DNA from: Thelocarpon superellum
Lineage: Eukaryota
DNA length: 64,000 bases
Reading direction: 5' to 3'
NCBI GenBank assembly: GCA_026025795.1
Contig: JAPEUG010000044.1
Location: 1 to 64,000 of the forward strand
Notes under the pieces: generated by a model
Database searches by the model: none
What the model saw: only the letters and a program-made list of their open reading frames with translations
Told to the model about the DNA's origin: nothing
Part shown: positions 56,300 through 60,323 of the stretch, piece by piece
Numbering within the stretch: the first letter of the stretch is position 1
How the letters are laid out: every line of letters starts with the position of its first letter
Made by a program: the position numbers and the translations under genes

Positions 56300-59024
56300 A
56301 TGGCGGCCCATGAGAATCTCAACGATTTTGATCTCTTTCCCGAGCACGGCAGCTACCCAGCCTACTTCGCGCACGAGCACCCGCGACATGACGGCTTCAA
56401 CCTCGACAGCGTCCGGCCTTTCTCCATGGCGCCGGAGCTCGCGCCGCCATACGGACAAGATGCCCTGAGCACGTATGACGGCTATGCCGCGCTGCCGGCC
56501 TACAGCCATGTGCCCGCGCATGGCTTCTACGATGCTTCCCATGGGCTGGCCGATAATCCTACTGGCGCCCTGAAGCACGCGGACCTGGCATCCGTGCCGC
56601 GTGCGTCACCCACGGCATCTGTGGAACACGCGCCCTCCTCGCTCTCGACAGCGTCGGGACCGTCGGTGGCGAGCGCGGCCTCGTCCGCCATCGGATCGCC
56701 TCATGCCAACGTCGGTCAGCTTTCCACCGCTGGGACATGGGCCGACGGAGTCGAAGCCTGGGTTGACCCCAACCCGAGCGTCGTCGCGGTCGACGCTTCC
56801 ACCCAGGACCACCAGACCCCAATTGGCCTGGACTCAGACCTGCTCTTCCTCAACGACAAACTCTCGGCTGGCTTTGTGGGTGAGTCCAACGAAGTTCCTC
56901 CGTCTCCAAGAGCTATTCGGCCTCTTTCTTTTTCCTCTCCGGCATGTCCATCTCCTTTTTCTTCGTCCGAGCCTGCTGCTTTTCCATCCGCCGCCGTCCC
57001 GGAACGGAGAGTGACCATCGACACCATCCTGGAAGAGGCCAACGGCGAAGTCACCAGTGCCACCGTGCCGGCAAATCCGGCGCCCGCAACGCCGCGGAAG
57101 CGGGCAACCACCTTGGCCACCAGCACCCCACCTCCCGACGTCTCCGTGTTCCGCTCGCCATCCACCCCTGCCTCGGCACGACGCGGCCCTTCACCACTCT
57201 CCTTCTCTCCCTCCGGCATACGAGACCGCAAACGATCGCTCCAAGGCACCAGCACCCATGGACCAGTCGCGAAGAGACCGTTCTTGCGCAACCCGTTTGC
57301 TCCTCACCCGCCTGCGGCAGAGCTCAGGGAGCGTGATTCTGCTGCTGCAGGTGCTCAAACACCTCTTCGTTTCGGTCCAAGCATTGGCAGTCTCGTGAAG
57401 CCAAATGACTCTTCTTGTTGGTTTCCTTCTCTGCGCGTGTCCCATGATTTTCTACCTCTCTCCTCCTGTCTCTTTCTGTCTCTTGCTCTCTCTCCTTTCT
57501 TCTCGCTCTCTCTCTCTTTTCTATGCTCTCCGTCGACGCTTTCCGGGAACAGAGCTGACGTATCGTCACTTAGATCCAGCGCTGATTCAATCTTTCCAAC
57601 CCTACGTGGGCGCCCCCACTCCCAACGCAGCTCTGTTGAACGAGGCGGGCGCTTTCGCCGCTCCTCACATGGCATTCGTGCAACCGCCGTCGCCGGCACC
57701 TTCGCATGGGTCAATGGGCAGTCGAAGAGCAGGCTCGATCAACTTCAAGCGAGGAAGCGAATCGCCCTACCTCCGCACGGCCGCGTTCCAGCCCTACCGT
57801 ACCTACTCCGACCCGCGACGACCGTCGCTCTCATCCGTGCACTCTTCCTTTTCGAGCCACGGCAGCCCTCGGTCGACGAGCGGCGAGCTGGATGACGAGG
57901 GCAAGGAGAAGGGCCGCTGCCCGAATCCGGATTGTGGCAAGGTCTTCAAGGACCTCAAAGCCCACATGCTGACGCATCAGTCGGAACGACCGGAGAAATG
58001 CCCGATCGTGACGTGCGAGTACCATCAGAAAGGCTTCGCGCGAAAGTACGATAAGAACCGACACACCTTGACCCATTACAAGGGGACGATGGTCTGCGGC
58101 TTCTGCCCGGGATCCGGGTCGGCGGCGGAGAAGAGTTTCAACCGTGCCGACGTGTTCAAGCGGCACCTGACGGCCGTGCACGGCGTCGAGCAAACTCCCC
58201 CGAACAGCCGCAAGAAGCTGTCCACTGGCGGCAGCTCCGGACCCGGCTTCGCCGGCTATGCCAAGGACGCGACGGGCAAATGTTCGACGTGCTCGGGAAC
58301 GTTCAGCAATGCCCAGGACTTTTACGAGCACTTGGACGACTGCGTGCTACGGGTCGTGCAACAGGAGGAGCCCAGCGAGGCCATCAACGAGATTCATCTG
58401 TCCTCGACGCTGGACGACGAGGCGACGAAGAAGACGCTGCGGGCGCACTCGTTGCCATCCAACTCGCTCTATCCGTCGCCACATCTTGCCCCCTCCTCGG
58501 ACAACGAGCAAGACGGCTTGGTGCGGGCGGAGACGATGGAGCCCCGCTCCCGAACTGGATCCATCCAGGTCACCGGGGCGGGACAGCCTCCTCCGCATTG
58601 ACAATCAGCACATCCCCGAGGTGTCCCTTCGCACGTCGGGGGTGGCAACTCCATCCACCACAAAGGCCGAGGCTTGACCTACTCCAAAGGCGGCGTACCG
58701 CTGGCGAGCAAGGGCCGGAAGAATCGCAAGGAGTTTCCGTTGTCGTGGGGCTGTGCGCCCGAGCAGATGAAGATGCGCAAGCGGGTGCTGTGTGTCTTTG
58801 ACGGGCCGCGCCGGCTCTGGAAGGATGACATGATGCTCAACAACGAGTTCGAGGTGCGCCTGCACCTGGGCGACGGCAAGTCGTACGTGACGGATCTCGA
58901 CGTGCAGACGTTGAAACGGGCGCACGCCTTCCACAACGCGACGGAGGAGGAGAAGGGGCCGTGGATCTTGGACTCGGAAGACGACGACCGGTCTTCCGTC
59001 GACCTGCAGGAGCTGATGTCATGA
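56300..59024 (+). CDS. C2H2 zinc-finger transcription factor (resembles fungal proteins annotated 'Ezf'); first stop at 58601, putative readthrough extension to 59024
   Basis: Fingers CPNPDC...HMLTH, CPIVTC...HTLTH, CGFC...HLTAVH and CSTC...HLDDC. ATG 56300 (ACCATGG; alternative 56270). Intron 56880-57573 gives GFVDPALIQ. In-frame TGA at 58599-58601, then 140 more codons. Confidence 0.85.
58599..58646 (+). promoter_or_regulatory. Putative translational readthrough signal: UGA-CAA-UCA plus 3' stem-loop
   Basis: CAR-YYA context directly after the UGA. 58611-58619 (CAUCCCCGA) pairs with 58636-58644 (UCGGGGGUG); inner helix 58621-58624 with 58631-58634. Confidence 0.6.
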
Positions 59025-59498
59025 TGTCATGTTGATCGATGCTAATGTTTCTCTCCGTCGATCTCGGTCCGCACTTGGCGTGTTTGATTTCCGAGCGCTG
59101 TGCTCTTCTCATCTCACCGCCTTCTCGTCCTCTCCCCTGAGGAATGAGGTTTTGGAGCGATTAGCGCATGATTCAGGATTGTGCATCATTCGGGGCAGCG
59201 TTGGGTTTGGGGCGAGGATATTCTCGACGATGACATGATGACGGACGGGGGGATACCAAGGGCACGTTTCAATCTGTTGACGGATGCATCGTACCATCTC
59301 GTATCATCTTGATTTCCTTCTCTGTGATTTAGCTACGCGAATGTGACACGGAACTGTGCAAATGTGTCGTGCGTCGGACCCCGTGAGAAATGATATGATG
59401 TCTCTATGCATGATCACAGAAATATAGAGAAGAGGATAGGTCACATAGAGCACAAGATTCTTCCCGTACGCCCATTCCCCCTCCCGGATGCCACCACG

Positions 59499-60323
59499 TC
59501 ATAAATTAGCCACCTCACCGCGCCATCCCCAGCCGCCCGGCGGAGGGGAGGAAGACGAGCCGTCGGCCGTCCAGCACGTCATGCCCGAGGCCTCACAGAT
59601 ACGAATGACGACGTCACGCACCGCGCGGACCTCGGCCACACTCGCGCCCTGATTCAAGGCCCCTTTCAGATGGCCCTTCAGCTGGGAATTCACATCCTGC
59701 GGGATCAAGCCAGCGATCAAGACATAGCTTGTCTCGACTCCCGACAGCACACGCGTGTGGCTGAGGATGTACCCGTACATCAAGCGCGCGGTGAGCCCCA
59801 GATCTTCCGTCCCGCTTCGCTCCATCCCGCCCATCACGCGCCCGGCCACCTTGCCGTAGACAAGGTCGAAGAAGCTCTGGCCCCGCTGGAGGATGGCGGA
59901 GGATGGCGTCGCGTAGATGTCGGTGGAGCGGGAAGTGGAGGTGGAGCCGTCGCCGGACGGAAGATCGAGCAGAGCCGCGGGCGTGCCGGCCTTCAGAGCC
60001 ATCAGCGCATTGATGGCGCGCGGGAGGCCGGCGATCGGGGCCATTTTGATCAGGGCTTCGCGCATCTTGCGCGCGATGCGGACTGGATCTTCGTGGGTAG
60101 GCGGGGGGATGCGCGAGGCCGATGTGGAACCAGATGTGCATGCGGGCGTGGCGCAGTGGTCGAGCGCGTGGGTGAGGACCTTGGGGATTTCATCGGCGCG
60201 GTTCAGGACCGATAATGCGACGCCGGCGATGAAATACCATGTGTGTTTAGGGAGGTGGGGGTGCTTGCTGATCGAGCGGAGCAACGTCGGCGTCATGACG
60301 CTGGGAAGCGTGATGGCGGCCAT
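59499..60323 (-). CDS. AhpD / carboxymuconolactone decarboxylase-like protein (Pxp2-like)
   Basis: LPKHTWYFIAGVALSVLNR, MREALIKMAPIAGLPRAINAL, ETSYVLIAGLIPQDVNSQLKGHLKGALNQGAS; ends VANL* (PTS1-like). Confidence 0.8.
   Translation of the reverse strand: MAAITLPSVMTPTLLRSISKHPHLPKHTWYFIAGVALSVLNRADEIPKVLTHALDHCATPACTSGSTSASRIPPPTHEDPVRIARKMREALIKMAPIAGLPRAINALMALKAGTPAALLDLPSGDGSTSTSRSTDIYATPSSAILQRGQSFFDLVYGKVAGRVMGGMERSGTEDLGLTARLMYGYILSHTRVLSGVETSYVLIAGLIPQDVNSQLKGHLKGALNQGASVAEVRAVRDVVIRICEASGMTCWTADGSSSSPPPGGWGWRGEVANL

Follow-up and report, generated by a model that had tools for sequence, protein, structure and literature searches.

Conserved functional readthrough of stop codons is known from few fungal genes, mostly with short peroxisomal targeting extensions, and from some yeast cases. 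The hexanucleotide CARYYA following a stop codon is reported to promote readthrough of UGA also (PMC3542737), and the same source states that stimulatory 3' structures typically start about 8 nucleotides (nt) past the stop and that benyviruses carry CAA-UUA together with a compact stem-loop. UGA-C is given as the leakiest stop context in PMC4615788, where CAA and six downstream nucleotides are described as acting on readthrough in yeast, UGA is said to be decoded as Trp, Cys or Arg, and U-UGA-C is reported as top for drug-stimulated readthrough in one mouse-cell study. Here, we describe a gene of Thelocarpon superellum that appears to combine several of these features. The DNA analysed (the window) consists of 64,000 nt, positions 1 to 64,000 of the forward strand of contig JAPEUG010000044.1. 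In it, a zinc-finger open reading frame (ORF; frame of 57399–58601) and a downstream ORF (58602–59024) lie in the same frame with one TGA between them, at 58599–58601. An earlier note, made from the letters of this DNA, had pointed to this arrangement and had taken the 140 codons after the stop for a domain present at the C-terminus of fungal homologs; both statements hold. To judge from the sequence comparisons given below, and with a probability that we put at roughly 70%, this is a case of programmed UGA readthrough of the tobacco mosaic virus (TMV)-like CARYYA type with a 3' hairpin, in a C2H2 transcription factor of the ZfpA type. One gene would then probably make both a short protein and a long protein with an extra domain.

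Conservation of the stop and of the domain behind it

A scan with the 140 amino acids (aa) encoded after the stop retrieved 18 related loci (L001–L018), all of them metagenome contigs. TGA occupies the same codon in 11 of these (L001–L010 and L018), with the finger ORF open in frame upstream. Six others (L011–L014, L016 and L017) are continuous and are without the block that follows the stop, and L015 begins within the domain, so that the stop position is not covered. The stop-bearing loci represent at least four diverged lineages (L001-3, L004, L005-10 and L018) and, with the window, make up the five lineages compared throughout. Between these, the pairwise proportion of synonymous differences (pS) is 0.57–0.93 and mostly saturated. 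Without exception, the window and the 11 loci (12 DNA sequences) have TGA as the stop codon, and none has TAG. Judged by its closest proteins, L018 lies nearer to Dothideomycetes than to lichen-type sequences.

The same position is marked in predicted proteins. Within a comparison set of 465 proteins (P0002–P0466), 58 have the last-finger anchor and no C-terminal domain, and 53 of these terminate in the linker at the homologous place, with ends of the form ..SGKG plus 9–12 residues and a final S, C or F; the other five have unrelated tails. Of the 53, 20 are NCBI proteins from named Lecanoromycetes (lichen-forming fungi), namely three Xanthoria, Squamulea, Xanthocarpia, Calogaya, Flavoplaca oasis, Xanthomendoza, Gallowayella, two Haloplaca, Blastenia, Teloschistes, Gyalolechia, two 'cf. 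Caloplaca', Letrouitia leprolyta, Seirophora scorigena, Stereocaulon virgatum and Lepraria neglecta. P0345, from the cultivable Xanthoria parietina, is a protein with its annotated end here. In further species, the protein models show what look like splice scars at the same spot: ..KRNSS joined to RGLTSSKGG in Pleopsidium, ..YTW joined to SAHPRGV in Xylographa, ..SGKG joined to VHTHVGGG in Seirophora villosa and S. lacunosa, ..CVLRV joined to LAHPRGV in Lophium, and ..HLDD joined to SHSRGVV in Corynespora. Paraphaeosphaeria, which like Lophium and Corynespora belongs to the Dothideomycetes, also has such an apparent scar. It is from the protein sequences that we infer which stop codon stands behind the 53 ends and read these junctions as scars.

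Relatives carry S, G, T or W, and not Cys, at the stop place, and a full-linker protein alignment found the linker too variable to give a reliable column there. P0004, an ORF call derived from Logan, carries a W precisely where the stop lies, with another extra W shortly past the usual C-terminus. The first of these may be a TGA read as Trp by the gene caller, in which case P0004 would be another stop-bearing lineage and not a TGG variant. An ancestral TGG at the stop was considered and dropped, since W at the stop is found only in P0004 and may itself be TGA. The W of the congener protein P0008 was also set aside as a stop-position residue, being more likely part of an upstream acidic-W motif.

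An independently assembled Logan contig covering 58463–59199 at depth 173 spans the TGA with no difference to the window. The run it comes from covers 97% of the stretch and is probably the source sample, so this contig tests the assembler and not the biology. A near-identical organism was seen in moss-metagenome runs of another study; about 450 bases are covered, and differences occur at 58109, 58697 and 58796, all of them third-position and synonymous in the gene frame, two lying downstream of the stop. Run X6, which we guess may be RNA, gave two small contigs, at 58032–58108 and 58830–58980, neither of them near the stop. In the source-like run X1, low-depth contigs of other organisms align to nothing but the domain and the conserved block that follows the stop, at 58598–58645 (for example, a 566-nt contig of depth 7 over 58779–58847), indicating that the sample holds other fungi with this gene family. 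From the bridging contig and the related loci together, we regard it as settled that the in-frame stop is genuine, old and kept by selection.

At E ≤ 0.001, 1080 of 1225 candidate proteins match the 140 aa; the 120 matches listed are without exception long fungal proteins with the precomputed label PF28332.1. An exhaustive HMMER search gave 220 cluster representatives at E ≤ 0.001, with the domain mostly C-terminal. The label on the relatives is precomputed, and a local Pfam scan of the 140 aa returned no PF28332-type match and only a chance-level match to ParcG (E 0.056). The best ESM Atlas score, 0.81, was to unrelated Pol_BBD clusters and is uninformative, and an AlphaFold2 model built from 23 sequences (mean predicted local distance difference test score 58.8, predicted template modelling score 0.37) does not reach the quality needed to search for related folds.

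Across the five lineages, the ratio of nonsynonymous to synonymous substitution rates (dN/dS) of the domain is about 0.05–0.1, and the finger domain is similar; for L004 against L005, dN is 0.050 and dS is 1.05. The corresponding ratio of proportions, pN/pS, is about 0.1–0.3, again as in the finger domain. The first ATG of the downstream ORF in the window comes 55 codons in (67 alignment columns), and over the 32 codons from GLT.SKGG to just before this first Met, pN is 0.11–0.30 against a pS of 0.52–0.93. Such a low pN relative to pS indicates that these codons are read as protein despite the lack of a preceding start. From these substitution patterns, we take it as settled that the sequence after the stop is translated and under protein-level selection.

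Constraint on the RNA and a predicted hairpin

The stop context in the window is U-UGA-CAA-UCA, the hexanucleotide occupying 58602–58607. In all five lineages, the stop is UGA, is preceded by U at −1, and is followed by CAA-YYA, which is CAA-TCA in the window, L001-3, L004 and L005-10, and CAA-CTA in L018. A 13-nt motif, TGACAAYYARCAC, occurs in each of the 11 stop-bearing loci, and the other seven lack it. Elsewhere in each gene, only 10–65% of Gln codons are CAA (multiplied together, the five shares give 0.008), TCA makes up 6–31% of Ser codons in the four lineages that have TCA after CAA, and CTA, which follows CAA in L018, accounts for none of the 18 Leu codons in the rest of that gene.

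The constraint extends past the hexanucleotide. Third positions are invariant in 56–67% of codons −5 to +16, compared with 0–17% in the perfectly conserved finger domain, and among amino-acid-invariant degenerate sites, codons identical in all five lineages are found at 4 of 6 sites in +1..+22 versus 14 of 141 elsewhere (Fisher p = 0.002). In +1..+22, pS is 0.06–0.18 when the four lichen-type lineages are compared with one another. The stop, the hexanucleotide and the next 45 nt or so are thus synonymously conserved across deeply diverged lineages, and such frozen synonymous sites in the first 16–22 codons point to an RNA-level element after the stop. That the stop context is constrained at the level of the RNA is, on this codon evidence, also regarded as settled.

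A hairpin is predicted at 58608–58646, overlapping the codons for AHPRGVPSHVGGG. Its core, 58611–58644, consists of 9 + 4 base pairs (58611–58624 with 58631–58644), and two outer pairs extend it to the full span. It begins 9 nt past the stop, and the UGA is unpaired and lies 5' of the hairpin in the predicted folds. The window hairpin has a folding energy of −27 kcal/mol (z = −4.3), a value reached by 0 of 200 shuffles; comparable values are found in L001 (−24.8 kcal/mol, z −4.4) and L004 (−23.3 kcal/mol, z −3.5). Thirteen pairs make up the consensus structure, in which 92% of cells are paired. A single compensatory change, from G-C to A-U, occurs in L004, and wobble changes affect one side of five pairs. 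This conserved element can, by these predictions, form a hairpin. In L018, the hairpin is degraded and carries a 9-nt insertion, though TGA-CAA-CTA is kept.

Gene structure, proposed mechanism and alternatives

All features of the gene lie on the forward strand. The first coding exon, 56300–57416, specifies an N-terminal region of about 372 codons plus one base, and was recognized by its alignment to the congener protein P0008, residues 11–324 of which align to 56300–57415 (E 1e-46). It is followed by a probable 157-nt intron at 57417–57573 (GTTGGT...CTGAC...TTAG), and the join across it yields ..SS-Y-PALIQ.., the P0008 counterpart being ..SSYPALI... The second exon, 57574–58598, carries the C2H2 fingers and an acidic, variable linker, and ends the short form at the UGA. 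The proposed extension, 58602–59021, comprises 140 codons, beginning with those of the RNA element and continuing with the C-terminal domain, and is closed by a TGA at 59022–59024, after a ..LMS end common to relatives. This terminal TGA is shared by the window and L001–L010. The public model of the gene, P0002, removes 56880–57573 as a single 694-nt intron, of which 56880–57415 is homologous to P0008; the real intron in that stretch is likely 57417–57573. A good GTGAGT donor at 56880 could possibly open an in-frame 132-nt intron (56880–57011).

The 240 aa before the stop share 80% identity with Aspergillus nidulans AN1500 over 80% of the query (E 1.4e-97), and the Pfam zf-C2H2 match (E 2.9e-5) scores 24.7 bits, just below the cut-off of 25.2. 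AN1500 is described as the orthologue of the A. fumigatus transcription factor ZfpA (PMC11069582), and, according to a preprint, an AN1500 null mutant has been constructed. By this homology, the gene is a member of the ZfpA/AN1500-type C2H2 transcription factor family.

With the intron at 57417–57573, the lengths would come to about 714 aa for the short form and about 855 aa for the long one. In the proposed mechanism, most ribosomes would stop at the UGA (58599–58601) and release the short form, made up of the N-terminal region, the DNA-binding fingers and the acidic linker. Some would instead read the UGA with a near-cognate tRNA, which in yeast studies is one for Trp, Cys or Arg, and by continuing for 140 codons would add the conserved C-terminal domain. 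The leakiness would come from three features, U-UGA-C, the TMV-type CAR-YYA sequence CAA-UCA, and the compact hairpin 9 nt downstream. Readthrough is favoured because it fits all of the conserved features. We infer that it is the ribosome, rather than editing or splicing, that bridges the stop, and the same applies to the efficiency of readthrough and to any differing regulatory activity of the two isoforms. A scan for tRNA genes found none in the 64-kb window.

The earlier note had already interpreted the gene in this way, and the comparative tests now lend that interpretation support: the in-frame stop and its CARYYA-like context were found conserved, dN/dS downstream is well below 1, and the bridging contig speaks against an assembly error. 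Two of its elements lack support in their original form, the covariation of the hairpin (see below) and the lengths of 535 and 676 aa, which were too low because 56880–57415 had been skipped. The mechanism itself is still one suggested by the pattern of conservation.

Several observations weigh against readthrough. Only three of the five lineages have a strong hairpin, and in L005 and L018 it is weak (z about −0.2); its covariation is not significant (261 of 500 shuffles reach the observed score, with five sequences), and its arms also encode the conserved peptides HPRG and VGGG. Natural cases of CARYYA readthrough are, according to PMC3542737, mostly at UAG and not UGA. The pattern TGACARYYA occurs three times in the window against 2.8 expected, a chance frequency for a single sequence; the significance of the motif comes from its conservation in other species, not from its frequency in the window. 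Contigs of a second strain, from another study (X2/X3), cover 58599–58749 with one difference, but they start at the TGA without bridging the stop and are therefore a hint only. Lastly, L018 holds a frame-keeping 72-nt candidate intron (L018:541-612; GTAAGG..CTAAC..TTGCAG) with a donor scoring 5/6, a CTAAC branch site and a TTGCAG acceptor. L018 may be a lineage that is shifting from readthrough to splicing.

The candidate in L018 bears on one of two explanations that would bypass the stop in the mRNA, namely that a small, weak or lineage-specific intron ('exitron') is spliced out to give the long form, the unspliced mRNA giving the short form. Gene predictors have used GT..AG pairs here in several species, such as 58521..58712 in P0002 and the joins of SGKG to V.THVGGG in Seirophora P0402 and P0407, and some relatives (P0009) are naturally without the cassette between SGKG and V..HVGGG. 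However, no donor or acceptor position is common to the five lineages: the AG at +7 is present in three of the five (L001-3 and L018 do not have it), and L018 also lacks the AG at +19. The splice arithmetic of the earlier note proved correct for the window, in that the GTs at 58400, 58451 and 58475 (mod 3 = 2) and at 58521 and 58569 (mod 3 = 0) do not pair in frame with the AGs at 58608, 58620, 58665, 58671 and 58689, all of which require a donor with mod 3 = 1. The region 58380–58600 is without a GT in phase with any AG up to 58689; the first frame-compatible pair is 58521..58712, and the best candidates in the window score 4/6 and would delete at least 37 conserved codons. The cassette is in frame in all lineages and is translated as sense in the stop-free relatives P0007, P0023 and P0459, and an intron would need neither a conserved UGA-CAA-YYA nor frozen synonymous sites. 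With no shared splice sites, weak candidates that delete conserved codons, and relatives that translate the cassette, splicing fits poorly and is quite unlikely. The other such explanation is adenosine-to-inosine (A-to-I) editing of the mRNA, which would change UGA to UGG (Trp) in some transcripts and make the conserved sequence an editing signal. Stop corrections of this kind are reported in filamentous ascomycetes, including 71 Fusarium graminearum genes, among them PUK1 (PMC11156358), a conserved stop is described in CHE1 (PMC11169179), and P0004 carries its W exactly at the stop place, although this W may itself be a TGA called as W. Fungal A-to-I editing is, however, described in PMC11156358 as strongly favouring U at −1 and hairpin loops and as correcting UAG to UGG, and the conserved CAA-YYA is foreign to the known preference. 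At the present site, the A has G at −1, none of the sequences shows TAG, and the UGA is predicted to fall outside the loop, so that editing also fits poorly and we consider it unlikely.

The remaining explanations leave the stop unbridged, give it another meaning, or make it an accident. If it always terminated, the domain could be made separately by reinitiation, from an internal promoter or by non-AUG initiation, and purifying selection on both parts does not by itself require that they be joined. Yet the first ATG lies behind the GLT.SKGG..KGRK..P.SWG block, which is under protein-level selection, all 12 sequences keep the two parts in a single frame, with nothing intervening, and stop-free relatives (6 of 18 loci, and the long proteins) have them as one polypeptide. 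Because the conserved block precedes the first Met, separate expression is very unlikely. A UGA might also be read as selenocysteine or be reassigned to sense in these fungi, UGA being the selenocysteine codon and the stop most often reassigned. A search of 58300–59900 found no selenocysteine insertion sequence (SECIS) or other Rfam family at E ≤ 1, the residues found at the stop place in relatives do not include Cys, and the same gene ends with TGA at the conserved ..LMS in the window and L001–L010, from which it follows that TGA functions as a terminator in this organism. With no SECIS found and a TGA as terminal stop, this explanation is highly improbable. For a lone in-frame stop in a metagenome-assembled genome, the prior expectation would be a private nonsense mutation, a fault of assembly or a recent pseudogene, but the depth-173 contig has no variant, 11 of 18 loci from lineages with saturated synonymous divergence have the same TGA, 53 proteins end there, and the downstream domain is under strong purifying selection. 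This expectation is refuted by these observations.

Annotation, significance and comparison with known systems

The top match to the 140 aa, P0002, is the public annotation of the window gene itself, entered as a hypothetical protein from a metagenome-assembled genome of Thelocarpon superellum. It joins ..DNEQDGL to GRKNRKEF.., which corresponds to a 192-nt intron at 58521..58712 with the donor GTGCGG, and in doing so removes the block ..HPRGVPSHVGGG..GLTYSKGGVPLASK, which is conserved in relatives. Annotations also conflict within genera: Seirophora P0402 and P0407 differ from P0403, and Flavoplaca P0375 from P0373, in being spliced across or truncated at the stop, so the annotation of this gene is inconsistent. 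Public annotations thus appear to be wrong in three inconsistent ways, by a fake intron (the window), by truncation (20 named species) and by other splice scars, much as had been anticipated for pipelines faced with such a stop. As a consequence, counts of domain gain and domain loss for these genomes will be distorted.

On the wider scale, we lean, if only slightly, towards an ancient recoding switch in many lichen-forming Lecanoromycetes and probably in some Dothideomycetes. It would yield finger-only and full-length forms from one unspliced mRNA, by means of a compact readthrough element (U-UGA-CAA-YYA with a hairpin beginning 9 nt further on) maintained over hundreds of millions of years, with the ratio of the forms as a regulated output, for example of the state of termination factors or tRNAs, or of stress. 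If this is true, a whole conserved transcription-factor domain depends on a leaky stop across many genera of lichen fungi, and the locus offers a natural and easily tested fungal readthrough element made of a plant-virus hexanucleotide and a 3' hairpin. In that case, the ZfpA family, which in Aspergillus is tied to hyphal development and antifungal tolerance, would also include a regulator with two isoforms. What sets the case apart is its age, the nature of the extension as the conserved domain of the family, and its being mis-modelled in many genomes. Full-text literature searches on readthrough in lichens, Lecanoromycetes and filamentous fungi, and on ZfpA, found no paper on this stop site.

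Among cellular genes, ZfpA/AN1500 of Aspergillus belongs to the same protein family, and in it the finger region is homologous and the C-terminal domain label is precomputed, as it is for the present family members. Unlike the window gene, the Aspergillus gene is continuous and has no internal stop (P0356 tail). Stops within transcription-factor genes that give two C-termini, as proposed here, are described in Drosophila for Traffic jam and a POU/Oct factor (10.1101/2020.12.04.411694, PMC8417969). Those animal factors belong to another kingdom and other families, and their extensions are described as mostly short or disordered, whereas here an ancestral, conserved domain of the family is split off by the stop. 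In the Arabidopsis eRF1-1 gene, cellular readthrough in a stop-CARYYA context is reported to be coupled to nonsense-mediated decay (PMC5397192). The likeness lies in the CARYYA context and in a long sequence after the stop, which could make mRNA that is not read through sensitive to decay. The difference, going by the same source, is that readthrough of eRF1-1 mainly protects the mRNA, while here it would add a conserved domain. The stop corrections by A-to-I editing in Fusarium and Neurospora resemble the present case in that a conserved in-frame stop must be overcome for the full-length protein; the sites described there are UAG, with U at −1 and in hairpin loops, and here the codon is UGA, with G at −1 and outside the loop.

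Two viral systems resemble the proposed mechanism. Type II cases (alphavirus, coltivirus) are described as having UGA-C and a 3' structure about 8 nt downstream, comparable to the UGA-C and the predicted structure at 9 nt here, but their next triplet is CGG or CUA and their stem is extended, where the present gene has CAA and a predicted compact stem of 13–15 base pairs. In type I (TMV-like) cases, CAR-YYA follows the stop (PMC3542737), as it does here (CAA-UCA, or CAA-CUA in L018), and the benyvirus coat-protein extension described in the same source combines a compact stem-loop with a functional C-terminal addition, just as is proposed for this locus. Type I stops are, however, given there as mostly UAG and are viral, whereas the present one is UGA and belongs to a cellular fungal gene.

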